Shown here piece by piece: positions 17,318 to 46,329 of a DNA stretch of 64,000 nucleotides. Source of the stretch: an uncultured Acidobacteriota bacterium. GTDB lineage: Bacteria > Acidobacteriota > Thermoanaerobaculia > UBA5066 > Gp7-AA6. Below the pieces are notes generated by a model. It was not told the origin of the DNA. It did not search any database and saw nothing but the letters and a program-made list of their open reading frames with translations. Positions within the stretch are counted from its first letter, which is position 1. Every line of letters starts with the position of its first letter. A program made the translations under genes and the position numbers. The stretch spans positions 3,930,664-3,994,663 of the forward strand of contig CAWFHK010000001.1 in NCBI GenBank assembly GCA_963815655.1, given 5' to 3'.

Positions 17318-17475
17318 AGAATCGGGTGATCGGATGATCGGGTGAACGGCGCAGTGGCTTAGGTTTTGCCCCCGTCAATCATCCGATCACCCGATCGCAG
17401 ATCACCCGATCGCAGATCACCCGATCGCAGGTCACCCGATCGCAGATCACCCGATTCCACTTCACCCGATTCCCC
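17318..17475. repeat. ATCACCCGATCGCAG 15-bp tandem array (~6 copies, 17386-17475) preceded by inverted GGGTGATCGG copies (17321-17346)
   Basis: Seen directly. It sits between the convergent kinase gene and the secreted-protein gene and can fold into a long stem. Confidence 0.8.
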
Positions 17476-20884: not shown

Positions 20885-22069
20885 ATGAAGAGAAGAGGCG
20901 GTACTGGAGCGCGGATCGGTGTCTTCGCCGGTGCCCTGGCCTCAGCCGTCCTGGTCCTGGGCGCAACCCGGGGCCCCGCACCGGTGGACGTCTTGACGAT
21001 CGGGACGGTGAACGTCTCGTCCGGCACGGGCCAGGTCAAGGTCCCGTTCTCGATCCAGGACAACACCGGCACCCTGATCGGCCGCGACAAGGGCGCGGGC
21101 CTGCGGATCACGATCTTCGCGGCGCAGGTGGTCTACGGGCCCAACGCCTGCATCGACACGCCGTCTTCGGCGAGCGCGCGCATCGACCTGACCGGCGGCA
21201 TCCTCGCCAGCCAGAGCGCGGACCTTGACAGCCGCGTCAAGGTGGCCAACACGTCGCAGACCTGGTTCTACTCCTCGGCGGAGTCGAACGGGCTCATCCC
21301 CTTCACGGCGGCGGCCAGCCCCGGAGACCTGATGGGACAACTGGTCTTCGACCTGACCGGCTGCCCGGCCGGCCCGATCAGCCTGACCGTCACCGCGTCC
21401 GGCGCGGCGCAAGCCCTGCTCAGCTCCGACAGTGGCATGTCCGAGACTTCCGGCAGCGGTCTCACGGTCGTCAACGGCGCGATCAACATCACTCTCCCCA
21501 CGAGCACGCCGACGAACACTCCGACCAATACGCCGACGAATACGCCCACGAGCACGCCGACGAGGACGCCGACCGGCACGCCGACCAACACGCCGACACT
21601 CACGCAGACGCCGACGAACACACCGACGTTTACGCCGACGAACACGCCCACGATCACGCCGACGGTTACCTTCACGAACACGCCGACGCTCACGCCGACC
21701 GGCACGCAGTCGCCGACCTTCACGCCGACGCTCACGCCGACGAACACGCCGACGAACACGCCGACGGCCACGGTGACGAACACGCCGACGAACACGCCGA
21801 CCGGCACTCCGCCGCCGACGATCACGCCGACGTTCACGGCGACGAACACGCCCACGATCACGGCGACGTTCACGGTGACCAACACCCCGACGAACACGCC
21901 GGTCGCGACGGTGACGCCGACGACGACCCCGATTCCGCCCCCGACCACGACGCCGGTTCCGGGAGCGATTCCGGCAAACATCCCGACGCTGGACGGACGG
22001 TCGCTCGCTTTCCTCGCCGCGCTCCTCGCGGCTGCCGGCCTGCTGCTGTCGAAGCGCCTTTCCGGGTAG
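20885..22069 (+). CDS. IPTL-CTERM sorting-signal protein with extended Thr-Pro (TPTNTP) repeat linker
   Basis: Signal peptide ([27 protein letters not shown]). About 150 aa of TPTNTP-type repeats, encoded by an 18-bp DNA tandem at 21490-21960. The C-terminus is [30 protein letters not shown], i.e. an IPTL motif, a TM helix and a basic tail. Confidence 0.7.
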
Positions 22070-26716: not shown

Positions 26717-27913
26717 CTACGAACGGCGATCCGGGGACGTTACGCGAAGACCGTCCGACAGCGGAACTGTTCCGGGCAAGATGACAACGTCGTTGTCCCG
26801 CAAGCCGTTCGTGATCTCGACGTCGTTGACGCCGATGAGGCCGATCGTGACGTCGCGCCGGCGCGCGCGGCCGTCCTCGAGCCGATAGACGAAGCGGCGG
26901 TCTCCGTCGCGGAAGAGGGCCGCGCGGGGAACGGCCAGGGCGCCGTGCTTCTCTCCCGTCACGATCTGCACGTTGACGGAGGCGTTGGGGGGAAGGGACA
27001 GGGTCTTGTCGGAGATCTCTCCCAGCACCTCGCCCACCTCGCGGCCGGCGGCTTGCCGGACGCCGGGCGACACGGCGAGGACCTTCCCCTCCCAGCGCCG
27101 GTCGGGCAGGCCGTCGAACAGGACGATGAGCCGCTGGCCCACCGCGACGCGCGGGAGGTCCGGCTGGTCCACGCGCGCCCGCACGCGCAGGTGCTCGGGG
27201 TCGGCCACGCCCGCGACCACCTGCCCGGCCGAAACGGTCTCTCCCGCCTTCCGCGGCAGGCCGTAGACGGTCCCCTCGAACGGGGCGGCGACGGTGAGGG
27301 CGGCCACGCGGCGCTCGAGCTCCCGCGCGGAGGTTTCGGCGAGCTCGAGACGGGACGGACCGGCGCCCGACCCGGCCAGCGATTCGAAGCGAGCCTGCGC
27401 CACGCGGAGGCGCTCGACTCCCTGGCGGTAGGCGAGCTCGTCCGTCTCGTAGGTCGCTCGGGGGATGGCCGACTGGCTCAGGAGCCGGGCGTCCGCCTCG
27501 AAGGTCTCCCTCGCGCGGGCCGTCTCCCGCTTCTGCTGCTCGAGATCTCCCTCCGCGCGGATCCTCTCCTCGGAGAGCTGGGCGGCCGTCGAGCGCGCCT
27601 GCAGAGCGGACTGGGTCAGCTCCGGGCTCTGGAGGACGACGAGCGGCGCCCCCTTCGCGACGCGATCCCCCTCGCGCGCGGGGATGGACGCGACCGTCGC
27701 CGCCTCGGGTGCCCGCAGCTCTCCGCCCGCCGGCGGCTCCAGGCTGCCGTCGGAGAGGATCGGAACGACGAGGTCCCTGCGCGCGACGCGCGCGGTCTGG
27801 ACCGGCACGCCGCTCGGGCCCCGGAAAGCGACGGCCGCGAGGATCACGACGAGCAGGACGGCCATGCCGGCCGCCCAGCGCCAGGGGATCCGGAAGCCGG
27901 GGTCTTCCTTCAA
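26717..27913 (-). CDS. efflux periplasmic adaptor (HlyD/MacA-family membrane fusion protein)
   Basis: N-terminal TM segment, coiled-coil hairpin and beta-barrel/lipoyl-like segments. The start may be TTG at 27913 or the internal ATG at 27865. Confidence 0.75.
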   Translation of the reverse strand: MKEDPGFRIPWRWAAGMAVLLVVILAAVAFRGPSGVPVQTARVARRDLVVPILSDGSLEPPAGGELRAPEAATVASIPAREGDRVAKGAPLVVLQSPELTQSALQARSTAAQLSEERIRAEGDLEQQKRETARARETFEADARLLSQSAIPRATYETDELAYRQGVERLRVAQARFESLAGSGAGPSRLELAETSARELERRVAALTVAAPFEGTVYGLPRKAGETVSAGQVVAGVADPEHLRVRARVDQPDLPRVAVGQRLIVLFDGLPDRRWEGKVLAVSPGVRQAAGREVGEVLGEISDKTLSLPPNASVNVQIVTGEKHGALAVPRAALFRDGDRRFVYRLEDGRARRRDVTIGLIGVNDVEITNGLRDNDVVILPGTVPLSDGLRVTSPDRRS

Positions 27914-27925
27914 GGCTCGCTTCGC

Positions 27926-27975
27926 TCGCCCGGGACTCGGGACTCGAGACTCGGGACTCGGAATTCGGGATTCGA
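27926..27975. repeat. GGGACTCG octamer tandem array (~5 copies) just upstream of the efflux operon start
   Basis: CCCGGGACTCGGGACTCGAGACTCGGGACTCGGAATTCGGGATTCG. The same octamer array recurs at 40.25-40.37 kb. Confidence 0.8.
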
Positions 27976-27980
27976 TGCGC

Positions 27981-29372
27981 TCATTCGTTCTCGGAACGCC
28001 GGAGAGGCCGGGTTTCCTCCTCGACGTCGGCGCCGTCTTCGTAGTAGTCGAGCCCGGAGTGATCGAGGACCTCTTCGCCCACGAGAATCCGCAGCGTGTT
28101 GGTCAGCTTCAGGTGCTGGATGAAGAGGTCGTGCTCCGGCTTCAGGTCCGGGCGGGACATGGGCGACTTGAAGTAGAAGGAGAGCCACTCCTGGATGCCG
28201 GAGAGCCCGGCGCGCTGCGCGAGATCGAGGAAGAGGATCAGGTCGAGAACGATCGGCGCGGCCAGGATCGAGTCGCGGCAGAGGAAGTCGATCTTGATCT
28301 GCATCGGCTGCCCCAGCCATCCGAAGATGTCGACGTTGTCCCACCCCTCCTTCGCGTCTCCGCGCGGCGGGTAGTACTCGATGCGGATCTTGTGGAAGTA
28401 GTCGCCGTACAGCTCGGCGTACAGGTCCGGCTGCAGGATGGCGTCGAGGACGGCGACCTTGGACAGCTCCTTGGTCCGGAAGGAGCCGGGGTCGTCCAGC
28501 ACCTCGCCGTCGCGGTTGCCGAGAATGTTGGTGGAGAACCACCCCTTCAGGCCCAGCATCCGCGCCTTCAACCCGGGCGCGAGGATCGTCTTCATGAGCG
28601 TCTGTCCGGTCTTGAAGTCCTTGCCCGCCACCGGGAGGCCCATGGCCTTCGAGAGCTCGACGAGTGCGGGGATGTCCACGGTCAGGTTCGGAGCGCCGTT
28701 GGCGAAGGGGACGCCCGCCTTGAGGGCCGCGTAGGCATAGATCATCGACGGGGAGATGTCGGCGGCGTTGCTCCGCAGACCCTTCTCGAACGCGGCGAGG
28801 GTCTCGTGGGTGGCGCTCGCTTCGAAATACGCCTCGGTCGAGCCGCACCAGACCATGACGGCGCGGTCGACGCCGCGCGTCCTGCGGAAGCTCTCGATGT
28901 CCGCGACGAGCGCTTCGGCGAGCTCCATTCTTGTCGCCGCCTGCTTCGACTGCTTCGCCTCGAGGCGCACGACGTACCGCTGGTCGAAGACGCCGGGCCA
29001 TGGAACGAGGCTCTCCAGCTCCTCGCGCACGGGGGCGAGGGTCGCCGGCGGCAGCACGCCGGCCGCGGCGGCCGCCTGCCAGGCGTTGTCGGGGAAGATG
29101 TCCCAGGCGCCGAAGACGAGGTCCTGGAGCCGCGCGAGCGGGACGAGCTCCTGGATCGGCACGAACCTCGGGTGAGTCCGCTTTCCCAGGCGGAGCTTCT
29201 GCATCTGGGTCAGCGAGCCGATGGGGCGGGCGAGCCCCTTGTTGATCAGGTGGACCCCGGCGACGAGCGTCGTCGAGATCGCTCCGAGGCCCGGCAGGAG
29301 GACGCCGAGCTTCCCGCGGGCGGGCGCGATCTCGCGGGCAAGCTCCGGGTAGAACGAGGTGCGGTCGCTCAC
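27981..29372 (-). CDS. myo-inositol-1-phosphate synthase (MIPS)
   Basis: N-terminal Rossmann NAD motif (LGVLLPGLGAISTTLVAGV). Conserved MIPS blocks (...NGAPNL..., ...LCRDSILAAPIVLDLI..., ...SKVAVLD...). GTG start with GGAG 9 nt upstream, overlapping the upstream stop as GTGA. Confidence 0.8.
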   Translation of the reverse strand: MSDRTSFYPELAREIAPARGKLGVLLPGLGAISTTLVAGVHLINKGLARPIGSLTQMQKLRLGKRTHPRFVPIQELVPLARLQDLVFGAWDIFPDNAWQAAAAAGVLPPATLAPVREELESLVPWPGVFDQRYVVRLEAKQSKQAATRMELAEALVADIESFRRTRGVDRAVMVWCGSTEAYFEASATHETLAAFEKGLRSNAADISPSMIYAYAALKAGVPFANGAPNLTVDIPALVELSKAMGLPVAGKDFKTGQTLMKTILAPGLKARMLGLKGWFSTNILGNRDGEVLDDPGSFRTKELSKVAVLDAILQPDLYAELYGDYFHKIRIEYYPPRGDAKEGWDNVDIFGWLGQPMQIKIDFLCRDSILAAPIVLDLILFLDLAQRAGLSGIQEWLSFYFKSPMSRPDLKPEHDLFIQHLKLTNTLRILVGEEVLDHSGLDYYEDGADVEEETRPLRRSENE

Positions 29373-30496
29373 GCGGGACTCCGAAGGACGTTTCCGCGCC
29401 CCGCGCGCGCCAGCGCCAGGAGCGAAAGGAAGAAGAGAGGAGCCCCGACCGCGGCGAGAATCAGGAACCAGCGGACGAGGCCAAGGGCCGCGAGGATGAC
29501 GACGAGGTAGATGAAGTCCCGGCGCGCGAGGGCGTCGGCCACGCGCGAATAGCGCGACGGCACGCGGGCGACCGAGGTGAAGAGCGGGCCTTCCCGTGTC
29601 CTGGCCGGCGCCATCGTCTGAGAATAGACGAATCCGGCCGAAGCCACGGTCCCCAGGATCGCGCCGGCGCCGAGCGCGAGCGGCCACGCGGAGCCCGAGC
29701 CCCGGCTCCATCCGATGGCGATCGCGCCGAACACGGCGGAATGGACGACGTTATCTCCCCAGAAATCGAGCGTGCCGCCCAGGCGCGATTCCTGGAACTT
29801 CAGGCGCGCCAGCTCGCCGTCGCAGCCGTCGACGATCGAATGCGCGAGGAAGAGGAGCGCGCCCGCGACATCGAGCGCCGGACGGGCCGGGAGGAAGAGA
29901 ACAGCTCCCACGAGGCCCAGGCCCACGCTCGCGAGCGTCATCGCGTTGGGAGTGACCCGCGTCGAGGCGAGGCGGCGGGAGATGGCGAGCGAGATCTTCC
30001 GGTCCACGTGGCGCGCCATGAAGCCGTCTTGCTGCTTGACGAGAGTCGCGAGCAGCCACATCTGCGCCTTCGGGAGGTCGGCCGGGCTCGAGACGGCGAA
30101 GCGCGATCCTTCCCCGGGAGGCTCCGGGAAGGGCGCGAAGGGGCGCGAGCGCAGGACCCCGGCGAGATGGTCCGACGGGCCGAGGTCTCCGAGGACGGCG
30201 TCCGGGTCCGCGGTCTCGAGCGCGGCCGCGCACACCCCGTCGGAATAGAGCCGCCCGGGTTCGAGCGGCATCTCTCGAAGCGAGCGCAGCCAGGGCACGG
30301 TCGGGATGACGGACCCCGGGAGCAGGACGACCCGCCCGGGGGAGAGCGAACCGGGCGCCCGCGCCTCGGCCGCGGGAAGAATCCGGCCGAAGCCGGCGCG
30401 CTCGGCGGCCTTCACGATTCTCGTCGTCAACGGCAGGCCCAGGACGATGGTCTCGCGCGGGACCGGCCCGGCCAGGATCACGAGGGTCGCGCTCAC
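29369..30496 (-). CDS. CDP-alcohol phosphatidyltransferase with ~150-aa N-terminal cytoplasmic extension
   Basis: CDP-OH-PT signature D-G-x2-A-R-x8-G-x3-D-x3-D (DGCDGELARLKFQESRLGGTLDFWGDNVVH). 5-6 TM helices. The N-terminal domain has a weak nucleotidyltransferase-like Gly-rich start (LVILAGPVP). Confidence 0.7.
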   Translation of the reverse strand: MSATLVILAGPVPRETIVLGLPLTTRIVKAAERAGFGRILPAAEARAPGSLSPGRVVLLPGSVIPTVPWLRSLREMPLEPGRLYSDGVCAAALETADPDAVLGDLGPSDHLAGVLRSRPFAPFPEPPGEGSRFAVSSPADLPKAQMWLLATLVKQQDGFMARHVDRKISLAISRRLASTRVTPNAMTLASVGLGLVGAVLFLPARPALDVAGALLFLAHSIVDGCDGELARLKFQESRLGGTLDFWGDNVVHSAVFGAIAIGWSRGSGSAWPLALGAGAILGTVASAGFVYSQTMAPARTREGPLFTSVARVPSRYSRVADALARRDFIYLVVILAALGLVRWFLILAAVGAPLFFLSLLALARAGRGNVLRSPA

Positions 30497-30500
30497 ATTG

Positions 30501-31541
30501 TCACCCGGACGTCATCTTAACGGGGGACCTGGCCGGAAGCGGGACGGGCTCGCCGCCGCGCCGGCTCGATTCGTAGGCGGCGGCCACCAGGCCCGCGCAC
30601 AGGCCCGCCACGGCGAGGTTCCCGCCGCGGGACGCGCGGTCGGTAATCGCCTCGGCGAACTCGGCGGCGACCCCGGCGAACCAGTCCGGGTGTTGCGAAC
30701 CGTGCGAAAGCGGCTCGGGGAACCCCCATTGCGCCGTCCCGGGTCCGCCGCCGGATCCGGTCAACTCGAGGAGCCTCCCGTCCAGGGAGAGCGCGCCCCG
30801 GCTCCCTTCGATCCAGGCCCGGTTCGTCCGCTCCGCGCCGGCCCACGTCAGGAAGACCTCCGCTTTCGCGCCGTCGTAGTCGAGGAAGACCCGGGCCGTG
30901 TCTTCGAACCCGCCGCCTCGTCTGTCCTCCAGATGCGCGGCGACATGGCGGGGAGGCTGCGGGAGCCAGTCGGCGAGAACGGAAAGCGCGTGCCAGCCGT
31001 GGTCCACGAGGATCCCTCCGCCCGAGACGGCGGGGTCCACGCGCCAGTTGCTCGCCATGCTTGACGCCGCGGGCTCGCGCCGCACGGTCTCCCAGAGAAA
31101 CCGGCGGACCTCCCCGATGGCTCCCTCCGCGGCGAGCTCGCGGGCCTTCGCGAAGATCGGCGCGTGCCGCCAGTTGAGGACCGTGAAGAGGACCCGGTCG
31201 GCACGCCCGGAGGCCTCGACGAGGGGCGGCAGCTCCTCCGGCCGGATGACGAGCGGCTTCTCGCACAGGACGTGCCGCCCGGAGAGGAGCGCCCGCCTCG
31301 CCAGGTCCGCGTGCGCGGCCGGCGGAGCGCAGATGTCCACGAAGTCGAGCTCCTCGCGAGCGAGCAGCTCTTCCGCGGAAGCGTGCCACCGGATTCCCGC
31401 CGCGCGGGACTCGAGCTCCCGCCGGCCGGTCTCGCTCGGATCGCTGGCGGCGACGAGGGAAACGTCTTCGCGCTCCAGCCACGCCGGCAGGTGGCCGCGC
31501 AGGGCCACGTTGCCGACTCCGATGATCGCCCCTCGAAGCAT
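30501..31541 (-). CDS. Gfo/Idh/MocA-family NAD(P)-dependent oxidoreductase (inositol/sugar dehydrogenase-like)
   Basis: N-terminal Rossmann motif IIGVGNVA...H and the EKP catalytic motif (VLCEKPL). Confidence 0.8.
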   Translation of the reverse strand: MLRGAIIGVGNVALRGHLPAWLEREDVSLVAASDPSETGRRELESRAAGIRWHASAEELLAREELDFVDICAPPAAHADLARRALLSGRHVLCEKPLVIRPEELPPLVEASGRADRVLFTVLNWRHAPIFAKARELAAEGAIGEVRRFLWETVRREPAASSMASNWRVDPAVSGGGILVDHGWHALSVLADWLPQPPRHVAAHLEDRRGGGFEDTARVFLDYDGAKAEVFLTWAGAERTNRAWIEGSRGALSLDGRLLELTGSGGGPGTAQWGFPEPLSHGSQHPDWFAGVAAEFAEAITDRASRGGNLAVAGLCAGLVAAAYESSRRGGEPVPLPARSPVKMTSG

Positions 31542-31555
31542 CGTCCTCCGGGCGG

Positions 31556-32821
31556 CTAGCCGGGTCTCTGTTCACGGAAGACGACACCCATGGCTTCGTC
31601 AAGGATGCCGAGGCCTTCGAGCGCCGTGTCCTCGTCGATCGTCAGCGGGGGGTTGATCCGGATGTTGTGCGAATAGCACATGGAGAGGAGTCCCCGGCGG
31701 ACGCATTCCTGAAACAAGGCCCGCGTCGTCTCCTTCTCGAGCGGCTCCTTCGTCGCGCGGTCCCTGACCAGCTCGACGCCGAGGAGCAGGCCCTTGCCCC
31801 GGACATCCCCGATGAAGGGGTGCTTCTCCTTCATCGCGAGGAGCCGGGCGAGCATCGCGCCCCCGACCCGCTCGGAATTCTCGACGAGGTTCTCGCGCGT
31901 GATGATCTCCAGCGCGGCGAGCCCGGCGGCCGCGGCGAGCGGGTTGCCGCCGTACGAGGAGGAGCTGCCGCTCGGTTTCGAGAACGGGGGGTGCGCGGTG
32001 AGCGCTTCGGTCGAGACGACGCCGGAGAGCGGGAACCCGCCGCCGACGCCCTTGCCGACCGTCATGACGTCGGGCACCACGCCGTCGTGGTCCACGCCCC
32101 ACATCTTTCCCGTCCGCCCGAAGCCCGTGATCATCTCGTCGGCGATGAAGAGGGCGCCGTGCTCGCGGGCGATGGACTGGATGGCGGGGAGAAAGCCCGG
32201 AGGCGGAATGACGTTGCCGGCGGTGCCCTGCATCGGCTCGACGATCACAGCCGCGACCGCGCCTCCCGTCTGGTTTCGGATCACCTCGCGCGTCTTCTCG
32301 GCGCAGGCGATGCCGCAGGCGGGATAGGTCAGGGAGAGCGGGCAGCGATAGCAGTAGGCGTAGGGCGCCGAGTAGCAGCCCGGGGCGAAGGGCCCGAGGC
32401 CTTCCTTGAAGCCGCCCCAGAGGAGCGGCAGAACGCCCCCCGTCTTGCCGTGGAAGGCGCCCGTGTAGCCGACGAACTCGTGTTTCTTCGTCGCGGACTT
32501 GGCCAGCCGGAACGCCGCCTCGACCGCCTCGGCGCCGCCGGAGAAGAGCTGGATGCGCGTCAGGCCCGGCGGCGCCACGCTCGCGAGGAGCTCCAGGAAC
32601 TTCGCCCGGACCTCCGTCGTGAAGCTTCCGAAGGTCACGCGTTCGAGCTGCTCCTTCAGGCGGGCGACGTAGTGCGGGTGGCAGTGCCCCACGCTCCCCA
32701 CCGCGACGCCGGCGATGAAGTCGATGTAGGCCCTGCCGTCTTCGTCGTAGAGACGGCTGCCGCTTCCGCGGGCGATGGCGAGTCCCGAAGAGAGCGCGAA
32801 GGATTGGAGTCCCGGCGCCAT
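31556..32821 (-). CDS. class-III (AT-III) PLP aminotransferase, HpnO/ornithine-GABA aminotransferase-like
   Basis: Class III aminotransferase blocks (DGRAYIDFIAG..., ...LFIADEMITGFGRTGKMWG..., ...TVGKGVGGGFP...). ATG at 32821. Confidence 0.8.
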   Translation of the reverse strand: MAPGLQSFALSSGLAIARGSGSRLYDEDGRAYIDFIAGVAVGSVGHCHPHYVARLKEQLERVTFGSFTTEVRAKFLELLASVAPPGLTRIQLFSGGAEAVEAAFRLAKSATKKHEFVGYTGAFHGKTGGVLPLLWGGFKEGLGPFAPGCYSAPYAYCYRCPLSLTYPACGIACAEKTREVIRNQTGGAVAAVIVEPMQGTAGNVIPPPGFLPAIQSIAREHGALFIADEMITGFGRTGKMWGVDHDGVVPDVMTVGKGVGGGFPLSGVVSTEALTAHPPFSKPSGSSSSYGGNPLAAAAGLAALEIITRENLVENSERVGGAMLARLLAMKEKHPFIGDVRGKGLLLGVELVRDRATKEPLEKETTRALFQECVRRGLLSMCYSHNIRINPPLTIDEDTALEGLGILDEAMGVVFREQRPG

Positions 32822-32886
32822 GTGACGCTGCTCGTCGGCGAAGACTCTCCGGGAGCGCGGGCCGGGGCCTCCCTCCCGATGTTTGC

Positions 32887-33759
32887 TCAGGGTCGGGCCT
32901 CGACCGGACCGGCCTCCCTCTGCAGGCAGGCCGCGAGGCGCACGGCGATGCGCTCGGACGCGATCCGGCGGTAGAGGGCGAAGCTCGGCCAGGCGTTGAT
33001 GTCGATGACCACGAGGCGGCCGTCGGCGGCCGCGATGGCGTCTCCGCCGTAGACCTCGAGGCCGAGCGAGCCGGCGGCGCGGGCGGCGGTCGCCGCGAGA
33101 GCGTCCGTGTCGAAGGGATGCCGCGACAGTTCCTGGTCCCGATGGTAGAACCACTGGAACCAGGCCTCGCCCTCCGGCTCCGGGGGCGCGACGCCGTAGA
33201 ACTTGATCAGGTCTCCGGGCACGTGCTCCTGGATGACCGCCGTCTCGATGCCGCGCTCCGCCATTCGCGCGAGCACGGCGGCCGCCGGCTCCGAGCCCGC
33301 GGCGAACGACACGTCGTCCTCCCGCGTCCTGTGATGGTCGCCGCGCTTGACCCAGACCGGCGCCGCGCGCGAAGGGAGCGCGTCCGCCGGCAGGGGCTCG
33401 CCCGTCGCCACGAGGACGCTGCGGGGGAACGGGATTCCGTCTCTCGCGAGGAGCGCGATCATCCGGTGGCGGCGGGTGTTGAGGATCGCCGACACGCGGT
33501 TGACGATGCGCGCGCCGTTCTGCTCCCACCGCCCGAGCAACTCGAGGATCGGGGGAAGCTCGCACATGACGAAGGCCAGGGAAGGCGCCTGCGCCGACGC
33601 GGCCGCCTCGTCCGGCGTCAGGAGGGTCACGGGCTGTCCCAGCGATTCCAGGCGCCGGGCCGTCGCGCGGAGGATCTCGGCGTCGTCCACCTCCCGGCCG
33701 GGGGAATGCATGAGCTCGCGGTAGATCCCCCAGCAGGACCGCCCCGCCGGCGCGTTCAT
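32887..33759 (-). CDS. ATP-grasp family ligase
   Basis: ATP-grasp C-terminal motifs (...VIQEHVPGDLIKFYGV..., ...VVIDINAWPSF...). The ATG overlaps the upstream stop (ATGA). Confidence 0.6.
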   Translation of the reverse strand: MNAPAGRSCWGIYRELMHSPGREVDDAEILRATARRLESLGQPVTLLTPDEAAASAQAPSLAFVMCELPPILELLGRWEQNGARIVNRVSAILNTRRHRMIALLARDGIPFPRSVLVATGEPLPADALPSRAAPVWVKRGDHHRTREDDVSFAAGSEPAAAVLARMAERGIETAVIQEHVPGDLIKFYGVAPPEPEGEAWFQWFYHRDQELSRHPFDTDALAATAARAAGSLGLEVYGGDAIAAADGRLVVIDINAWPSFALYRRIASERIAVRLAACLQREAGPVEARP

Positions 33760-34484
33760 GGTTTCCCTGCCGTCACGGGCGCGCCGGGCTCGCGGGCCGC
33801 GAGCTCCTCGGCGAGGGCCAGGTCCTCGGGGCGGTCCACGTCCACGACGGCGGGGATGGAGAAGGCGAGGAGGGTCTCTCCGCTCCGCGCGAGCCAGGAG
33901 AGGAACTCCCGCAGCCGTCCGATGTTCTCGGGAGGGCGGAGCTTCCGGACCCGCTCGGGGAAGGCGTACATTCCTGCCGTCACGACGTCTCCTTTCTCTC
34001 CTCCAAGAGCCGTGATCCGCCCCGCCGGGTCGACGGACGCGCGCAGCGGCTTTTCGTCCGCGACGAACGGAGTCACCGCGAGCATCGCCGCCTCCGGCGC
34101 CTCCGCGGCCGCTCGCGCGAAGCGCAGGAAGTCTTCCCGCGGGCACCAGGCGTCCACCGTCGAGAAGAGCGCCGGACCCGGCGGCAGGCGCGCCGCGACC
34201 CGCCGGAAGCTCTCGTAGGAGGAGGCCGTCGTCTTCAGGATGACCTCCGTCTCGAGGGAAGGGAACCGGCCGCGGATCCAGTCGGCGCAGTCCTGCTCGC
34301 TCTCGTTGAAGATGACCGTGACGCGGTCGACGCCGGCCGCCGCGAAGTTGGCGAGGACGTGCGCGACGAGCGGGACGCCGGCGACCCGCACGAGGGGCTT
34401 GGCGGCCCCCCCTCCTCCCGCGCGCAGCCGGCTGCCCTCGCCGGCCGCGAGGAGGCCGCCGACGCGGATCGGCCCGGGCGTCAC
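33756..34484 (-). CDS. nucleotidyltransferase (NTP_transferase fold; sugar/alcohol-phosphate cytidylyl- or guanylyl-transferase-like)
   Basis: N-terminal GGLLAAGEGSRL...KPL signature. GTG start overlapping the upstream stop (GTGA). Confidence 0.65.
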   Translation of the reverse strand: MTPGPIRVGGLLAAGEGSRLRAGGGGAAKPLVRVAGVPLVAHVLANFAAAGVDRVTVIFNESEQDCADWIRGRFPSLETEVILKTTASSYESFRRVAARLPPGPALFSTVDAWCPREDFLRFARAAAEAPEAAMLAVTPFVADEKPLRASVDPAGRITALGGEKGDVVTAGMYAFPERVRKLRPPENIGRLREFLSWLARSGETLLAFSIPAVVDVDRPEDLALAEELAAREPGAPVTAGKP

Positions 34485-35218
34485 GGCAGGATCTCCTCGA
34501 TCTCCGCGAGCCGCCGGATCATCGGATCGCCCGGACAGCACGGCCGGGCGCCTCCGTCGGCCTCGCGGGCGGCGAGCCAGACATGCCGCATGCCGGCCTC
34601 GCGGGCGCCCGCCATATCGCGCGGGGCGGAGTCGCCCACGAAGACCGTCTCGCCGGCATGCGCTCGAAGCGGCGTCAGGGCGGCCTCGAAGATGCGGCGG
34701 TCGGGCTTCGTGTATCCGACCACGGCCGAATCGACGGCGACGGAGAGCGACGGCGCGAGACCGGTCTCGGCGCAGACCGCGGCGAGATTTCCGTAGAAGT
34801 TGGAGACGATCCCGATGCGGTACCGGCGGGCGAGCCGCTCGAGCAGCCGCGCGCTTTCGGCGAGCCGCTCGCTCGCCTGCGCGTGGAACCGCGCCGCCAG
34901 CCTCGCTGCGACGGATTCGTCCGCGAGGCCGAGCGTTCCGGCGAGCCCGGCGGCCAGCCTCTCGACGGTCTCGCGCAGCCCGAGCGTCGCGGGAAGCCTC
35001 CCGACGAGCGCGTCGTTGGCGGTGTAGAAGGCCGGGTCGAATCTCTCCCGCGGGACCTCGATCCCTTCCTCCCGGCAGTGGCGGAAGAAACGCTCCTTCC
35101 AGGGGATGCCCTCGGCGTCGAGCGTGCCCCCGAAGTCGAAGAGGAGGAAGAGGACCGGATCGTTGCGGACCGGGTCCGGCGCCGAGTGCCGGGGGCCGGG
35201 AGGCGCAAGCGGATTCAT
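34481..35218 (-). CDS. HAD-superfamily hydrolase (phosphatase)
   Basis: Motif I DFGGTLD (DxD), motif II SN, and the motif III/IV K...GD (TVFVGDSAPRD). Confidence 0.7.
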   Translation of the reverse strand: MNPLAPPGPRHSAPDPVRNDPVLFLLFDFGGTLDAEGIPWKERFFRHCREEGIEVPRERFDPAFYTANDALVGRLPATLGLRETVERLAAGLAGTLGLADESVAARLAARFHAQASERLAESARLLERLARRYRIGIVSNFYGNLAAVCAETGLAPSLSVAVDSAVVGYTKPDRRIFEAALTPLRAHAGETVFVGDSAPRDMAGAREAGMRHVWLAAREADGGARPCCPGDPMIRRLAEIEEILP

Positions 35219-36228
35219 CGCAGCTCCTCGGCCCCGGTCGGCAGCTCGACGGCCGACGCCCGCTTCCCGCGGGCCGGGCGCGCGATCAGGTAGAGAGCCC
35301 CGGGCACGAGCCAGACGAACTCCCGGGCGCGCCGCGCGAGCGCGTACGCCGCGCCCTGCGCCGCCGCGAGCCCGAGCAGGACGAAGATCCCGACCCGGAC
35401 CCCTTCGGCGCTGCCGGCCCTCGCCGGGACCCAGAGGAACATGTTGTTGAGCGCCATGGCCATCGCTTCGACGGCGAACGCGGTCGGCCACCCGGCGCCG
35501 GGCGCCACGAGGCGCAGGATGAGATACGTCTCGACCAGTCCCCCGCACCAGCCGAGAAAGCTCAGGCCGACGGCCGCCCCGAACCGTCCGCGCCGCCTCG
35601 CGTAGAAGCCGCGGATGTCGGCATCCACGCGCTGAGCGGCTTCCTGGTACCGGCCGACCCGCGCGGCGAGGAACCTCCAGCGCGCGAGCCACCGCAGGAT
35701 CGGGGCGTAGGTCCCCCGGAAGAGCGACCACGTCAGCAGGACAAAGAGCGCGCCCAGCACGGCGACCCCGCCGAGGGCCCCCCAGCGCGCCCCCGCGGGC
35801 AGAGGAAAGCGGACCAGGCAGACCGTCACTCCGCCGACGATGAAGACCCACTGGGCCAGCATGTCGGCGTGCTTGTGGATCGTGAGCGAGGCGAGCGCGC
35901 GGCCCGGCGGCAGCGTCCCGGTGAGCAGCCGGGCCTTGAGCGGCTCGCCCGCGACGCCTCCGGGCGCGACGTAGTTGACCGTGTACCCCGCGAGGTAGAC
36001 GCCCATCAGGCGCGGCAGCGCGGAGAGAGGCAGGAGCGGATCGATCACGAGCCACCAGCCGAGCAGGAACGCGGCCTCCGCGAAGAAGTAGATCGCGACG
36101 AGCAGGACGAACCAGGCGCCGATCGCCTCCAGGTTCGAGGCGATCGCGGGCCAGCCGACCCGCCAGAAGAGCCAGGCGACGAGCGCCAGGCCCGCCAGCA
36201 GGAGCGCGCCCCGCGTGCTCCGGTTCAT
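35215..36228 (-). CDS. UPF0104 / lysyl-phosphatidylglycerol-synthase-TM-like 'flippase-like' membrane protein (HpnL-like)
   Basis: About 8 TM helices, all hydrophobic, and an Arg/Lys-rich N-terminus. This family is known as a hopanoid-cluster-associated membrane protein. Overlaps the HAD gene (ATGA). Confidence 0.6.
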   Translation of the reverse strand: MNRSTRGALLLAGLALVAWLFWRVGWPAIASNLEAIGAWFVLLVAIYFFAEAAFLLGWWLVIDPLLPLSALPRLMGVYLAGYTVNYVAPGGVAGEPLKARLLTGTLPPGRALASLTIHKHADMLAQWVFIVGGVTVCLVRFPLPAGARWGALGGVAVLGALFVLLTWSLFRGTYAPILRWLARWRFLAARVGRYQEAAQRVDADIRGFYARRRGRFGAAVGLSFLGWCGGLVETYLILRLVAPGAGWPTAFAVEAMAMALNNMFLWVPARAGSAEGVRVGIFVLLGLAAAQGAAYALARRAREFVWLVPGALYLIARPARGKRASAVELPTGAEELR

Positions 36229-36247
36229 GGAAGGGGCTCCGCGCGCC

Positions 36248-37225
36248 TCACGCCGTCGGGAGAAGCGCCTTCAGTTCGACCGGGAGGGGAAAGTTCACGT
36301 CCTCCTGCACCGTTTCGAACTCCTCGACGGACTCGACGCCCAGACTTTCGCGCGCGTAGTCCACGACTTCGCGCACGAGGATCTCCGGCGCGGACGCGCT
36401 CGCGGTCAGGCCGAGGACCCGGACGCCCGAGAGCCATTCCGGCCGGATGTCCATCGCCCGCTCGATCAGGTACGACGGGACGTTGTGCGCGCGGCCGACC
36501 TCGCAGAGGCGAAGGGAGTTGGAGCTGTTGGGCGCGCCGAGCACCAGGAGGGCGTCCACGTGCGGCGCCATCGCGCGCACCGCGTCCTGCCGGTTCTGGG
36601 TGGCGTAGCAGATGTCCCCCTTGGGCGGGCTGACCATGTCGGGGAAGCGGCGCTTCAGGACCTCGACGATCTCGCGCGTGTCGTCGAGCGAGAGTGTCGT
36701 CTGGGTCAGGTACGCCACCCTGCCGGGATCGGGGACCTCCACCGTCTCGGCCTCTTCCCGGTTCCCGACCAGGCGGATCGCCCCGGGCGCCTCTCCGAGC
36801 GTGCCGATCGTCTCGTCGTGGTCGTGATGCCCGATCAGGAGAATCGTGTAGTTCTTCTTCGCGTAGTGGATCGCCTCGAGGTGGACCTTCGTGACGAGCG
36901 GGCAGGTCGCGTCAATTGTCTTCAGCTGCTTGCGGCGGGCGTCGGCCCGCACCGTCGGCGAGATGCCGTGGGCCGAATAGATGAGCCACGACCCGTCGGG
37001 GACCTCGTTGACCTCCTCGACGAAGACAGCCCCCTTCTCCCGCAGCTCGTCCACGACGTAGCGGTTGTGGATGATCTCCTTTCGCACGTAGACCGGGCCG
37101 TCGCAGACCTGCAGCGCCCGGTCCACGACGTCGATCGCGCGCACGACGCCGGCGCAGAAGCCGCGCAGCCCCGCCACGAGGAGCTTCTCGACGCGCGCCG
37201 CGCCGGGATCCGTCGCTACGACCAT
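36248..37225 (-). CDS. ispH: 4-hydroxy-3-methylbut-2-enyl diphosphate reductase
   Basis: Conserved IspH/LytB blocks (GFCAGV, ...ATCPLVTKVH..., ...HNVPSYLIE...). Confidence 0.9.
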   Translation of the reverse strand: MVVATDPGAARVEKLLVAGLRGFCAGVVRAIDVVDRALQVCDGPVYVRKEIIHNRYVVDELREKGAVFVEEVNEVPDGSWLIYSAHGISPTVRADARRKQLKTIDATCPLVTKVHLEAIHYAKKNYTILLIGHHDHDETIGTLGEAPGAIRLVGNREEAETVEVPDPGRVAYLTQTTLSLDDTREIVEVLKRRFPDMVSPPKGDICYATQNRQDAVRAMAPHVDALLVLGAPNSSNSLRLCEVGRAHNVPSYLIERAMDIRPEWLSGVRVLGLTASASAPEILVREVVDYARESLGVESVEEFETVQEDVNFPLPVELKALLPTA

Positions 37226-39165
37226 GTCACCGTCTCCACGGCCTTCTCCTCGTCACGCGGCGAGGCGGTCTTCTCTCCGGGCGCCGCGGCGCGCGCGAGC
37301 TCCGGGTAGAGCGTCAGGACCGTCTCCACGACGCCCGCCGCGTCGAGCTTCAGGTTCGCGCGCTGGAGCGCCTGCGGACTGTGCTCCACGAACTGGTCCG
37401 GGATCGCGTGGATCTTCAGCTTCCCGGCCGGAAGGCCGGCCGCGTGGAAGGCCTCGAGGACGCCGCTTCCGAAGCCGCCCGTCGCCAGGTGTTCCTCGAG
37501 CGTCAGGACGCGCGGCGCCATGAGCGCGATCCGGGAGAGAAGGTCCCCGTCCAGCGGCTTGGCGAACCGCGCGTCGGCCACGCCGCAATCGATTCCTCGC
37601 TCCTTCAGCGCGTCGGCGGCGGCGAGGGCCACCGCGACCATCGAGCCGTAGGCGAGCAGGCAGAGGTCCTTCCCTTCGCGGAGGATCTCGCCGCGGCCGA
37701 TCGGGATCTTCTTCAGCTCCGGGTCGAGCTCGACGCCCACGCCGAGCCCGCGCGGGTAACGGATCGTGAAGGGCCCGCCCGATTCGATCGCGGTGAAGAG
37801 CAGGTGCTGCAGCTCGTTCTCGTCCCTGGGCGCCGCGACGACCATGTTCGGAAGGGAGCGGGTGTAGGTGATGTCGAAGATCCCGTGGTGGGTCTTCCCG
37901 TCGTCGCCGACGAGGCCAGCCCGGTCCGCGCAGATCGTCACCGGGAGGTTCTGCAGGCAGACGTCGTGGATCAGCTGGTCGAACGCGCGCTGCAGGAACG
38001 TGGAGTAGATCGCGACGACCGGCTTCCAGCCCGCCTTGGCCATGCCGGCCGCCATGATGACGGCGTGCTCCTCGGCGATGCCGACGTCGTAGACCCGTCC
38101 GGGGAAGCGCTTCTGGACCTCGATCAGGGCCGTCCCTTCGAGCATCGCGGCGCTGATCGCGACGATCTTCTCGTCTTTCTCCATGAGCCGCGAGAGCGTC
38201 TTCGCGAAGACCTGCGAGTAGGTGTAGCGCGCGCCCGGCCCGACGCTCGCCGACGGCGTGCCCGGCTGATGGAACTTGGAAGGGTTGTCCTCGGCGAGCT
38301 TGTAGCCCCGCCCCTTGTGGGTCAGGACGTGAACGACGACCGGCGTGCCTTCCCGCGAGATGTCCTTGACGCTCTTCAAGGACTCGGCGAGCTCCTCGAG
38401 GTTGTGGCCGTCGACCGGGCCGATGTACTGGAGGCCCATCTCCTCCCAGATCAGGTTGGGGAAGAAGAGCCCCTCCACCGAAGTCTTGACCTTGCGGGCG
38501 ATCTTCCACGCCTCTTCCCCGAGCGGCAGCCTGGAGAGGAGCTTCTGGCCCGCTTCCGTCAGCTTCTGGTACTTGGGGTGGAGCATGAACCGGTTGCGCC
38601 AGTGCGCGAGCCAGCCGATGTTCTCGGAGATCGACCAGCCGTTGTCGTTGAAGATGACGACGAGCCTCTTCGGCTTCAGGTGGACGATGTTGTTCAGGGC
38701 CTCGTAGCTCGGCCCCGAGGTCAGGGCGCCGTCCCCCACGACGGCGACGACGTAGGGCTCGCCCGGAGCGTTCTGAAGCGCGACCGCCATCCCGAGCGCG
38801 TAGGAGAGACCCGTCCCCGCGTGTCCGGCCGCGAGCATGTCGTGTGGGCTCTCCGCCGGCTCCGCGAAGCCGGACAGCCCGCCGGGCGTGCGGATCGTCG
38901 CAAACCGGTCCCTCCGGCCCGTGACGAGCTTGTGGGTGTAGCACTGGTTCGACGTGTCCCAGACGATCCGGTCCCTGGGGCTGTCGAAGGCGCGGTGGAG
39001 GGCCAGGGTCAGCTCCACGACGCCGAGATTGGAGGCCAGGTGCCCGCCGGTCCGGGTGATCGTCTCCACGATCATGCCGCGGCATTCCTCCGCCACCTCG
39101 CCCAGCTCCTTGATGCTCAAGGCCTTCAGGTCCTGAGGGCCCTCGATCCCTTTCAGTCGCGACAT
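37216..39165 (-). CDS. dxs: 1-deoxy-D-xylulose-5-phosphate synthase
   Basis: TPP-binding GDG(A)LT...NDN motif, the transketolase-like pyrimidine domain and the C-terminal domain. 649 aa. Confidence 0.9.
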   Translation of the reverse strand: MSRLKGIEGPQDLKALSIKELGEVAEECRGMIVETITRTGGHLASNLGVVELTLALHRAFDSPRDRIVWDTSNQCYTHKLVTGRRDRFATIRTPGGLSGFAEPAESPHDMLAAGHAGTGLSYALGMAVALQNAPGEPYVVAVVGDGALTSGPSYEALNNIVHLKPKRLVVIFNDNGWSISENIGWLAHWRNRFMLHPKYQKLTEAGQKLLSRLPLGEEAWKIARKVKTSVEGLFFPNLIWEEMGLQYIGPVDGHNLEELAESLKSVKDISREGTPVVVHVLTHKGRGYKLAEDNPSKFHQPGTPSASVGPGARYTYSQVFAKTLSRLMEKDEKIVAISAAMLEGTALIEVQKRFPGRVYDVGIAEEHAVIMAAGMAKAGWKPVVAIYSTFLQRAFDQLIHDVCLQNLPVTICADRAGLVGDDGKTHHGIFDITYTRSLPNMVVAAPRDENELQHLLFTAIESGGPFTIRYPRGLGVGVELDPELKKIPIGRGEILREGKDLCLLAYGSMVAVALAAADALKERGIDCGVADARFAKPLDGDLLSRIALMAPRVLTLEEHLATGGFGSGVLEAFHAAGLPAGKLKIHAIPDQFVEHSPQALQRANLKLDAAGVVETVLTLYPELARAAAPGEKTASPRDEEKAVETVTWS

Positions 39166-39383
39166 GGATCTCCTTGCCGTTGCCCGTCCTGGCGCGGGGC
39201 GCGTTCGACGTCCGTACCGTGTCCCGCTCTCGAGCCGATGTGCCTCAAGTTATCGCGCTCCCCTGAATATACCAGCTTGATAGCATTCGGGTTTCAGCCC
39301 GCGAGGAGTCTTGCAATTCCATGGCCGGAGAGGCGATAGTCCCCGGCGCGGGGGAATCGGCGGAGAGGAGGTCCCACAGGGAC

Positions 39384-40295
39384 ATGGAAGCCTTGCGGAT
39401 CGGATCGGACGAACACGCCCGTCTCTTCTGCGGGACGTTCCTGGAGACTCACCGCCCCTTCCGGGCCCGGGACATCGTCTGGCCCGAGCTGGACGAGGAG
39501 AACCTGGCCAGGTTGAAGGGCCTCCCCGTCTGGGACGAGGCGGCGAGGACGGAAGCCGCCACCGCAGTCAAGGTGCAGACCCTCGGGGAAGCCGAGACCG
39601 ACCCGCTCCTGAAGGAAGCCATCGCCCTGCAGGGCTACGAGGAGGGGCGCCACGCGGAGATCATCTCCCTCCTGACGAAGACCTACGGGATCGCCACCGC
39701 TCCCTTCGGAGAGCCGGAGAGGCCGAAGAACCCGACGTGGACCTTCCTGCGCACCGGCTACGGCGAGTGCCTCGATTCCTTCTTCGCCTTCGGCCTCTTC
39801 GACATCGGGCGCAGGAGCGAGTTCTTCCACGCGGACCTGATCGCGCTCTTCGACCAGATCATGCAGGAGGAGGCGAGGCACATCCTCTTCATCGTGAACT
39901 GGGCGGCGTACCTGCGCGCCCGCAGGCCCCTTCCGCTCAAGCCGGTGTTCGACGCGCGGCGGGCCTGGAACATCGCCGCGCAGGCCTTCGACCGCGTGAG
40001 CGGCGCGATGCGAATGGCCGGCGGCGGAAACGGCGGCGGCGGAGAAAACGGTGAAGAGAAGGCGAAGGGGACGCAGAGGGGGTTCACGCTGAAGAGCCAC
40101 TCGGCCTTCGGCGATTTCAAGCTGCGCTCGTTCCTGGAGCTCTGCCTGGCCGAGAACGTGCGGCGCCTCTCGCCCTACGACCCGCGCCTGTTGAGACCCA
40201 CGCTGGTACCGGGGACCGTGCGGCTCCTGGTGAAGCTGCTCCCCCGGGCGAAGCCGGGACGCGGGACTCGGGACGCGAGACTCGAACCGAAGTGA
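39384..40295 (+). CDS. ferritin-like di-iron carboxylate protein
   Basis: ATG with GGAGAGGAGG RBS. Two ExxH motifs (EEGRH, EEARH) in helical context. Gly-rich C-terminal tail. Confidence 0.55.
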   Translation: MEALRIGSDEHARLFCGTFLETHRPFRARDIVWPELDEENLARLKGLPVWDEAARTEAATAVKVQTLGEAETDPLLKEAIALQGYEEGRHAEIISLLTKTYGIATAPFGEPERPKNPTWTFLRTGYGECLDSFFAFGLFDIGRRSEFFHADLIALFDQIMQEEARHILFIVNWAAYLRARRPLPLKPVFDARRAWNIAAQAFDRVSGAMRMAGGGNGGGGENGEEKAKGTQRGFTLKSHSAFGDFKLRSFLELCLAENVRRLSPYDPRLLRPTLVPGTVRLLVKLLPRAKPGRGTRDARLEPK

Positions 40296-40365
40296 TGGTC
40301 CTTCGCTCCAAGAACCCAACCAGGTTTCCCCCTCCGAACCCCGAGTCCCGAGTCCCGAGTCCCGA
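40250..40365. repeat. inverted GGGACTCG / CGAGTCCC octamer arrays spanning the ferritin-like stop and abutting the next start codon
   Basis: CGGGACGCGGGACTCGGGACGCGAGACTCG (40250-40280) and CCGAGTCCCGAGTCCCGAGTCCCGAC (40340-40365) are reverse complements of each other. The second ends 3 nt before the ATG at 40369. Confidence 0.75.
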
Positions 40366-40368
40366 CTG

Positions 40369-41541: not shown

Positions 41542-41648
41542 GACGTGAGACGTAAGAACGTGAGGCGTGGCGCGGGAAGGGCATTTGGAGCTTCGTTTTG
41601 CGTTTCACGCTTAACGTCTTACGGCTCTGGTGTTAACTTGGTCCAAAG

Positions 41649-46323: not shown

Positions 46324-46329
46324 CTATCC

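Follow-up and report, generated by a model that had tools for sequence, protein, structure and literature searches.

Heptanucleotide arrays at two gene junctions of an acidobacterial genome: an architecture kept while the repeat unit turns over, and a possible translated relay

The window analysed here is a stretch of 64,000 nucleotides from an uncultured Acidobacteriota bacterium (GenBank assembly GCA_963815655.1, contig CAWFHK010000001.1, positions 3,930,664 to 3,994,663) with a G+C content of 69.6%. It carries tandem arrays of the heptamer GGGACTC at two loci, one between an inositol-3-phosphate synthase gene and a macA-like gene (locus 1) and the other at the junction of a ferritin-like-domain gene and a gene for a 390-aa protein (locus 2), where a first-pass annotation made from the sequence alone had described octamer arrays placed right in front of start codons. 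The features of the two loci, including an open reading frame (ORF) that bridges the flanking genes at each, are as follows, with positions counted within the window.

Locus 1:
26717 to 27913, minus strand: membrane-fusion-protein (MFP; HlyD/MacA-like) gene, from its ORF and Pfam families
27910 to 27984, minus strand: bridging ORF 1 of 24 codons, translated as MSASNPEFRVPSLESRVPGERSEP up to its stop codon
27931 to 27974, minus strand: single heptamer array without inverted partner, from the sequence and Tandem Repeats Finder (TRF; period 7)
27981 to 29372, minus strand: upstream inositol-3-phosphate synthase gene (PF07994/PF01658; 462-463 aa orthologs, conserved synteny)

Locus 2:
39384 to 40295, plus strand: ferritin-like-domain gene, the upstream cistron, with its start taken from the 303-aa ortholog P0001
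40255 to 40284, plus strand: left (G-rich) arm, GGGACGC GGGACTC GGGACGC GAGACTC, from the sequence and TRF
40256 to 40356, plus strand: predicted RNA hairpin of both arms with the 55-nt spacer as loop or branch, from the minimum free energy (MFE) structure
40292 to 40369, plus strand: bridging ORF 2, translated as (V)MVLRSKNPTRFPPPNPESRVPSPD up to its stop codon
40340 to 40365, plus strand: right (C-rich) arm, (CCCGAGT) x3.7, from the sequence and TRF
40369 to 41541, plus strand: downstream gene for the 390-aa protein (386-388 aa orthologs), previously labelled a secreted or outer-membrane gene

All three focal arrays run head to tail with period 7 according to TRF, which assigned 6.3 copies with 86% matches to the locus 1 array (27931-27974), 3.9 copies to the left array of locus 2 (40255-40281) and 3.7 copies with 100% matches to the right array (40340-40365). 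A two-unit probe allowing at most two mismatches matched the window 11 times against 1.26 expected, a count reached by none of 100 shuffles. The two loci of the first-pass annotation are thus real, lie where it placed them and far exceed chance, but the period is seven and not eight; the supposed octamer arose because the G counted as its eighth base already opens the following unit. The location upstream of the macA-like operon was also correct, although the roughly five copies counted there resolve into about four good and two degenerate units, and the placement directly before a start fits locus 2, where the right arm ends 3 nt before ATG 40369, but not locus 1, where the MFP TTG start lies 17 nt beyond the end of the array. 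Two further points, that locus 2 is an inverted pair with its left array in the end of the ferritin-like coding sequence (CDS) and its right array just before ATG 40369, and that the C-rich strand is the mRNA strand before both starts, were borne out in full. Rfam 15 gave no family match anywhere in the window at the gathering threshold. The unit GGGACTC does not fit the published GGGNATC/GGGAATC consensus, having C for A at position 5, but fits the looser G3N4 pattern; only the degenerate locus 1 copies GGAATTC and GGGATTC approach GGGNATC.

At locus 1 the plus strand reads GGGACTC GGGACTC GAGACTC GGGACTC GGAATTC GGGATTC and the sense (minus) strand GAATCCC GAATTCC GAGTCCC GAGTCTC GAGTCCC GAGTCCC. 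The array sits between the inositol-3-phosphate synthase stop (27981-27983) and the MFP TTG start (27913), with both genes on the minus strand, the 5' end of the synthase gene being drawn from 463-aa orthologs. The MFP gene is the first of an operon encoding the MFP, an FtsX permease and an outer-membrane factor (OMF), and its TTG start, which lacks a Shine-Dalgarno (SD) sequence, is supported by homologs of 394-400 aa at 98-100% coverage. The ATG of bridging ORF 1 overlaps the upstream TGA (ATGA), its own TGA overlaps the macA-like TTG (TTGA), and the whole array lies inside it. Folding prediction makes the RNA around the array less structured than its shuffles, with a z-score of +1.4. Among seven loci around the MFP ortholog, both the sister strain (L205) and L206, an ortholog with 89% aa identity and a 20-codon bridging ORF, keep the array as (GAGTCCC)4-5, and L207, which has no array, still has a 7-codon GTGA...ATGA mini-ORF. 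The intergenic gaps of these orthologs (67, 55 and 16 nt) all equal 1 modulo 3, the array-less version included.

At locus 2 the left arm encodes a non-conserved C-terminal tail of the ferritin-like protein, homologs of which terminate at varying points, inside or past their own arrays; it holds three GGG tracts in the window and four in the sister strain (L121). No SD sequence precedes ATG 40369, and neither the 390-aa protein nor its 386-388 aa orthologs matched a Pfam family. Bridging ORF 2 begins with a GTG/ATG that overlaps the ferritin-like TGA (GTGATG), contains the right arm, and ends in a TGA that overlaps the downstream ATG (TGATG). The two arms are predicted to form a hairpin with an MFE of -57.9 kcal/mol (z-score -2.5; 1 of 200 shuffles equally stable). 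The earlier proposal of a repeat-based element in mRNA leaders is supported, and its RNA-structure form agrees with the prediction at locus 2 but not with the unstructured array of locus 1. A scan for consensus promoters and terminators at both loci found nothing at the arrays. An intrinsic (Rho-independent) terminator was rejected because neither locus has a terminator-like site and the sequence after the locus 2 hairpin, GACUGAUGGG, contains no U-tract.

Homologs of the ferritin-like and MFP proteins mark the host as a Thermoanaerobaculia-like acidobacterium, with a sister strain on a 750-kb ENA contig. Comparison of 4 + 80 loci around the ferritin-like ortholog, including the sister strain that is about 97% identical to the window at the nucleotide level over about 30 kb, revealed that the architecture of locus 2 is kept while its unit is replaced. 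Arrays of period 7 are present at this junction in 15 distinct orthologs with protein identities of 74-99%; with one exception they form inverted pairs, and the unit pairs include GGGACKC with GAGTCCC, GGGAAAC or GTAAAAC with GTTTTCC, GGTAGAC or GGTAGGC with GTCTCCC or GCCTCCC, GCGTAAG with CTCACGC, and CGGAAAA with CACGTTT. In all pairs the 5' arm is purine-rich and the 3' arm pyrimidine-rich, and the consensus units of the two arms are Watson-Crick complementary at 5-7 of 7 positions in every one of at least eight unit families; where they repeatedly fail to match, a T or A in the left arm gives rise to TAG or TAA. RNAfold predicted pairing of the left with the right arm in 14 of 14 two-armed orthologs, with z-scores from -1.0 to -7.5. 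The 61 arrays of the related lineage comprise 46 distinct units, and their copy numbers peak at 4-5 for units without any G3 or C3 tract (36/43) as well as for units with one.

The same units nevertheless turn up at more than one place: two unrelated junctions share GGGACTC in the window and CGCCTCA in L124, and such sharing of a unit also occurs in L140. Similar unit pairs at non-orthologous junctions numbered 60 against 29 +/- 5 for composition-matched random heptamers; since single-linkage clustering chained most units into one cluster, likeness was judged only by this pairwise excess. These recurrences indicate that there is some intragenomic spread or some preference for particular unit sequences. 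In the metagenome orthologs L125 (3553-3702), L128 and L129 a long palindromic element (CCCTGTCATCCCGAGGAGCGAAGCG...CGCTTCGCTCAGGATGACAGGG) replaces the heptamer pair at the ferritin-like/390-aa junction, and a related 27-nt tandem repeat (x5.5; GCTCGGGATGACAGGAGGGGGCGAGGG) occurs in the window at 9213-9377, which suggests that repeats able to form hairpins land at this junction generally.

Stop and start codons at the junction are arranged with similar regularity. All 15 distinct array-bearing orthologs of locus 2 lack an SD sequence and have a stop codon 2-6 nt before the downstream start or overlapping it, in the forms TGATG, TAATG, TAGATG, TGACATG, TGACGTG and TAAGGTG. Distant orthologs without arrays have GGAGGAGA or AAAGGAGA without such a stop, or a 3-nt gap or overlap. 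A start codon is always present in the frame of the junction stop, either as an ATG in the hairpin loop or as an ATGA/GTGA overlap upstream, and the resulting ORFs of 15-25 codons run through the pyrimidine-rich arm. In total, 17 of 21 junction ATG, GTG and TTG codons are in the frame of the terminal stop (p = 1e-5), as are 8 of 11 when ATG is counted alone (p = 0.009). Gaps in the GGGACTC family of locus 2 (73, 103, 43 and 61 nt) all equal 1 modulo 3 despite the 7-nt unit, and the C-rich array is free of stops in all three frames.

Comparable arrangements occur at other junctions. Between an aminotransferase and a GFO oxidoreductase gene in L124, a GTGA...ATGCTGA ORF passes through (CGCCTCA)4. 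At a junction of LPG-synthase and HAD genes, arrays of different units follow a start within an ATGA overlap and continue in frame up to the conserved LLFDFGG motif, reading as a non-conserved N-terminal extension. Junction B, between the 390-aa gene and a radical-SAM gene, served as a negative control and displayed no frame bias of start codons (12:11:8); there a conserved GATAAT-like box comes after the hairpin pair. A bridging ORF as a universal property of the arrays is rejected given the lack of frame bias at junction B and the arms that lie farther from starts in other phyla.

In the window, junction B carries a CGTRAGA x4.6 array (41537-41569) that overlaps the stop of the 390-aa gene, with a partial inverted copy at 41603-41625. 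The sister strain has about 35 nt of unrelated sequence in place of this array (L121, 12140-12175) and a different C-terminus of the 390-aa protein, and other orthologs of the junction carry other heptamer pairs (GACTGAG/CTCAGTC, CTGTCGA, GTTCTAA). The conserved GATAAT-like box lies 10-15 nt before the radical-SAM start and may be a -10 element that gives rise to a near-leaderless mRNA.

Copy number changes slowly. It is identical at all three focal arrays between the window and the sister strain, although there are substitutions inside the arrays, and the near-identical metagenome contigs L130/L135, L123/L139 and L140/L141 have no array length differences. Among species-level relatives the right arm of locus 2 ranges from 3.7 to 12.6 units. 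The expansion and contraction anticipated in the first pass are therefore seen between species but not as a rapid process, and the identity of copy number between 97%-identical strains makes rapid phase variation unlikely; judged from these genomes, array change is slow turnover and not contingency-locus behaviour.

The arrays are local members of the known class of intergenic heptanucleotide simple sequence repeats (SSRs), with the unit GGGACTC and an acidobacterial host. In many bacteria no long SSR class is more over-represented than that of heptanucleotides; by published accounts these repeats have long been known from cyanobacteria and were later characterised in Xanthomonas, Nostoc and Beggiatoaceae. 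A cross-phylum scan with one genome per species found (GGGACTC)3 in at least 120 loci of high-GC lineages, and both loci are conserved in relatives, so that the outcome named in the first-pass annotation as refuting it, no further copies and no conservation in related genomes, did not come about. The matches listed, to which the following figures apply, come from Xanthomonadales/Lysobacterales, Rhodanobacter, Microbulbifer, Vicinamibacterales and other Acidobacteriota, Gemmatimonadota and Planctomycetota. In 37 of 38 close pairs the G-rich arm comes first, as (GGGACTC)n-spacer-(GAGTCCC)n, and a typical pair has 4 + 4 units around an unconserved spacer of 45-210 nt. The commonest copy number is four, found in 76 of 181 arrays overall and in 47 of the 72 that are paired; the distance of arms from stop codons is 3-15 nt, and pairs stand between co-directional or convergent genes, with none between divergent genes. 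In 715 kb of related DNA, a sample biased to the focal junctions, there are 59 intergenic or edge arrays of period 7 and at most 7 of any other period; in 905 kb of cross-phylum loci, with the searched motif excluded, period 7 accounts for 74 arrays, period 6 for 46 and periods 8 and 9 for 15 each. Two kinds of mobile or dispersed element were rejected: MITEs (miniature inverted-repeat transposable elements) or other mobile elements, given that spacers (45-210 nt) are unrelated between loci except orthologs and that no target-site duplication is evident, and repetitive extragenic palindromes (REPs) or bacterial interspersed mosaic elements (BIMEs) associated with REP-associated tyrosine transposases (RAYTs), given that tandem heptamers make up the arms, which have no GTAG head, and that units differ between loci.

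The closest described repeats are those of Rehm et al. (2015, PLoS One, PMC4692102), who reported GGGAATC in Xanthomonas and GGGGAYT in Nostoc with a preference for four units, a strand rule near starts and stops, 70-75 convergent pairs in each genome and 83% conservation of position when two species were compared; they showed that a G-quadruplex (G4) forms in vitro and did not settle the function. Shared with these are the 7-nt unit with a G3 tract, the four-unit preference, the bias to non-coding DNA, the convergent G-rich-first pairs, and the strand rule, in which the G-rich strand is either the sense strand, within 50 bp after stops, or the antisense strand, before starts. Position is likewise kept between related genomes while length and sequence vary, arrays are rare between divergent genes, and no function is known. 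The present arrays differ in a unit that departs from GGGNATC at position 5, in their acidobacterial host, in the coexistence of many unit families with none dominant, in the non-G units at orthologous sites, and in abutting SD-less starts within bridging ORFs, which is unreported for Xanthomonas.

Other heptamers share parts of this picture. The cyanobacterial short tandemly repeated repetitive (STRR) sequences, including those of Nostoc recF/recO (bioRxiv 10.1101/2022.06.06.494920), also comprise several heptamer families per genome, with 3-8 contiguous copies about 30-100 nt from starts, some overlapping the start, with non-canonical or distant SD sequences and with a part in translation suspected; effects in reporters were modest and did not resolve the mechanism. 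In contrast, their units are AT-rich, their host is low in G+C, inverted pairs are few in Nostoc and no bridging ORF is described. TAACTGA of marine Beggiatoaceae (MacGregor 2015, PMC4679880) similarly forms arrays a few nucleotides upstream of starts, where 2-6 copies replace the ribosome-binding site of genes of all functional classes and a role in translation initiation was proposed, but this is a single unit containing two stop codons, unlike the stop-free start-proximal arrays described here, with almost no inverted pairs and a gammaproteobacterial host. The closest experimentally characterised analogue is the leader of Haemophilus influenzae hmw1A (NAR 2025, PMC12721329), in which a transcribed (ATCTTTC)n SSR is one arm of a long leader hairpin, as is predicted here, the other arm is complementary and purine-rich, the structure controls downstream expression, and cleavage by RNase III was demonstrated; for the paired arrays, a part played by RNase III or in stability would be compatible with the relay proposed below. 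The hmw1A leader differs in having at least 11 hypervariable repeats, where copy number here is stable, in a right arm that is not a tandem array, and in serving a phase-variable surface adhesin.

REP/BIME sequences are likewise hairpin-forming intergenic repeats located just after stops in operons, but each REP is one imperfect palindrome that has a conserved GTAG head and is moved by RAYTs, and not a tandem heptamer. Stop/start overlaps of the ATGA and TGATG type are a classical signature of termination-reinitiation coupling, though classical coupling junctions have no intervening relay ORF with a repeat array.

We posit, as somewhat better than an even bet, that the arrays at both loci form a translated relay that would provide translational coupling between the flanking genes, which run in the same direction and are probably co-transcribed in each case. 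Ribosomes that finish the upstream gene, at a stop overlapped by the start of the bridging ORF, would begin anew on that ORF, cross the stop-free array, terminate on the SD-less downstream start and re-initiate there, a two-step termination-reinitiation relay. At locus 2 the G-rich array in the tail of the upstream CDS would additionally pair with the C-rich array in a hairpin that buries the downstream start and that would be opened by a ribosome on the upstream gene or on the bridging ORF. The arrays probably grow and homogenise by replication slippage, with the arms co-evolving so as to remain complementary. We infer actual translation and coupling from the anatomy of the loci, their stop/start overlaps, the conservation of frame, the absence of SD sequences, the complementarity of the arms under unit turnover and the predicted folding. 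An alternative role common to all arrays, that of an unstructured landing pad, was rejected, as segments with paired arrays rank among the most structured ones, whereas the single array lacks structure.

Several observations weigh against such a relay. Co-transcription is drawn from gene spacing and the lack of consensus promoters and terminators. The hairpins of junction B and of the pairs between convergent genes are untranslated, and in other phyla the C-rich arm mostly lies 5-71 nt from starts among the matches listed, which leaves room for an SD sequence. An open frame is uninformative by itself because pyrimidine-rich arrays are inherently stop-free, the p-values given above overstate independence because orthologs are phylogenetically related, and some bridging ORFs of the GGGACTC family start with GTG only. 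The ORF features could also be a secondary accommodation of a junk insertion into a junction that was already coupled, as 3-nt gaps or overlaps are present in L127, L136 and L184. The arrays may be adaptive, by tuning coupling or by protecting the C-rich tract from Rho or RNases, or may be slippage insertions that selection keeps translatable.

A neutral or selfish origin is the most serious competitor of the relay, and we regard it as a real possibility without thinking it likely. The arrays would then be useless products of slippage, with ORFs, frames and overlaps reflecting purifying selection on pre-existing coupling. The diversity of units with no sequence conservation at orthologous sites fits this, as do the close-set junctions of L127, L136 and L184 and the mini-ORF of the array-less L207, the variety of contexts (3' hairpins, N-terminal extensions, bridging ORFs), the one window array that is absent from the 97% identical sister strain, and the dominance of period 7 among all tandem arrays, which agrees with a polymerase-slippage bias (Mrazek 2007, as cited in Rehm 2015). 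Less easily reconciled with neutrality are the persistence of arrays at one junction across about 25% protein divergence, a sharp mode at 4-5 units in place of a decaying length distribution, arms that remain complementary through unit turnover, the strict purine-first orientation (37/38 among the matches listed and all pairs in the related lineage) and the recurrence of unit families at non-orthologous junctions above the random expectation.

A more general proposition, which we advance tentatively and consider doubtful, is that heptamer arrays near starts are translated relay tracts. A stop-free, G-poor array of about four units (28 nt, approximately one ribosome footprint) would link an upstream stop to an SD-less start and, where paired with a purine-rich complement, would form a ribosome-opened hairpin that enforces coupling. 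Complementarity, purine-first orientation and four-unit length would be under selection while the unit itself drifts by concerted evolution. With purines first, the C-rich strand would at no time lie open to factors such as Rho while untranslated or unpaired.

For the inverted pairs alone, the hairpin could instead be an intercistronic RNA-processing or stability element, REP-like or an RNase III site, in which cleavage of the stem by RNase III, or its obstruction of exonucleases or Rho, gives the cistrons different stabilities. We consider this rather unlikely as the principal role, although it is compatible with a relay. It would account for the long, near-perfect predicted stems (about 25-28 bp), for arms 3-15 nt after stops and for pairs between convergent genes such as that at 17321-17470 of the window; the heptamer-SSR hairpin in a 5' untranslated region that serves as an RNase III substrate controlling expression in H. 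influenzae is a precedent (PMC12721329), and a G-rich arm placed first would keep a C-rich Rho-loading tract from ever being exposed. It leaves unexplained the unstructured single array at locus 1 and the conservation of frame, and the missing U-tract means that the hairpin is not an intrinsic terminator.

The remaining explanations are less compatible with the comparative data. A G4 or i-motif on DNA or RNA that modulates transcription or translation, as raised in the first-pass annotation and by Rehm et al., seems improbable here. Four units of GGGACTC do fit G3N4G3N4G3N4G3, four is the modal copy number among the matches listed, and oligonucleotides of the GGGAATC type form G4 in vitro, with an i-motif on the C-strand at pH 6.5 (Rehm 2015, PMC4692102). 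Yet orthologous junctions whose units lack G-tracts (GTAAAAC, GGTAGAC, GCGTAAG) have the same architecture and the same 4-5 mode, which is equally strong without any G3/C3 tract; the left arm of locus 2 in the window has only three GGG tracts, the locus 1 mRNA contains only the C-rich strand and RNA i-motifs are unstable, and in pairs the complementary arm competes strongly as duplex. A binding array for a sequence-specific trans factor, whether a protein iteron as in the first-pass annotation or a complementary sRNA, that defines a regulon is similarly improbable. Its best points are the units shared by unrelated junctions in the window, L124 and L140, the recurrence of units above expectation, the single dominant family per genome in Xanthomonas and Beggiatoaceae, and the binding partner speculated for Nostoc (bioRxiv 10.1101/2022.06.06.494920), but orthologous junctions swap their unit with no sequence conservation while keeping the architecture, and this lineage has many unit families per genome. 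Because architecture and the number four are independent of G-tracts and units differ at orthologous sites, neither a G4/i-motif nor an iteron is a general explanation here. Least probable is a phase-variable contingency switch, in which gain or loss of one 7-nt unit would shift the frame of the bridging ORF (7 not being a multiple of 3) and turn downstream translation on or off within populations. Heptamer SSRs do drive phase variation of hmw1A (PMC12721329), and copy number does differ among species-level relatives, but it is the same at the three focal arrays in strains about 3% diverged and in the near-identical contig pairs, every observed length variant keeps frame, the associated genes are housekeeping or biosynthetic, and Rehm et al. 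also argued against phase variation (PMC4692102).

The window contains further short-period intergenic arrays of unrelated units, several as inverted pairs (GTCCAAG, AATCACA, CGTRAGA, TTGTGAG/TTCACAA and an 8-mer/15-mer pair). GTCCAAG x3.9 at 2917-2943 begins 4 nt after ATG 2913, which itself follows the upstream stop (2908-2910) by 2 nt; residues 2-11 of a protein with a signal peptide (MSPRSKVQGPKWPALLGLAGLMLSSAALRA) are encoded by this array. The similar GACCAAG x6.6 is present at another junction in L131, and GAC(C/T)AAT repeats adjoin Nostoc recO (bioRxiv 10.1101/2022.06.06.494920). An inverted pair of TTGTGAG-type and TTCACAA heptamers occupies 63337-63366 and 63457-63486 among genes on the minus strand, where an ATG in the loop (63381) opens a frame that continues through the pyrimidine-rich arm into the N-terminus of an ABC-ATPase (MIPPHSQLTTHNSQFLVLDRLDKHFG...). 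This array is probably translated as an N-terminal extension of the ABC-ATPase, and the 2917-2943 array likewise appears to be an in-frame N-terminal extension.

AATCACA x4.6 at 6088-6119 lies 8 nt after a stop (6078-6080) between convergent genes; its unit family (AATCACC/ATTCACA) also occurs at the LPG-synthase/HAD junction in L122 and L208 and in the window array at 63457. The inverted pair at 17321-17349 and 17385-17470 consists of ATCGGGTG x3.6 (period 8) and GATCACCCGATCGCA x5.7 (period 15), the latter unit containing the reverse complement CACCCGAT, and lies between convergent genes 5 nt after a stop; its periods mean that the phenomenon is not strictly limited to period 7. Repeats of 12 and 102 nt at 21500-21955 (ACGAACACGCCG x33), on a minus-strand gene (21268-21981), are presumably a Thr/Pro-type low-complexity protein repeat.

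The gene neighbourhood from about 29400 to 48200, recognised via L121 and L205, appears to be a membrane-lipid island of inositol-phospholipid, isoprenoid and hopanoid genes. It includes inositol-3-phosphate synthase and CDP-alcohol phosphatidyltransferase, DXS and IspH/LytB, and, for hopanoids, squalene/phytoene synthase, squalene-hopene cyclase and a DUF3463 radical SAM protein. Several of its operon junctions carry heptamer arrays.

While the class of heptamer SSRs is already known, a unit one base off the published consensus and a new phylum are added to it here, along with comparative evidence for a sequence-independent architecture and the bridging-ORF hypothesis. Searches of the literature found nothing on the literal repeat sequence, nothing relevant linking SSRs to translational coupling, and no description of bridging ORFs in the work searched on these repeats; the ORFs linking neighbouring genes were also missed in the first-pass annotation. 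Heptamer SSRs have no established function, the leading idea for G-rich ones being the G-quadruplex, and the junctions compared here offer a natural comparative experiment in which period-7, complementary arrays of 4-5 units stay while the unit changes, making architecture separable from sequence. In practical terms, such arrays cause gene-calling artefacts in high-GC metagenome-assembled genomes, namely spurious N- or C-terminal extensions and missed mini-ORFs. If the relay is true and general, it would provide a mechanism for the heptamers that take the place of ribosome-binding sites in cyanobacteria (STRR), in Beggiatoaceae (TAACTGA) and in Xanthomonas (GGGAATC).

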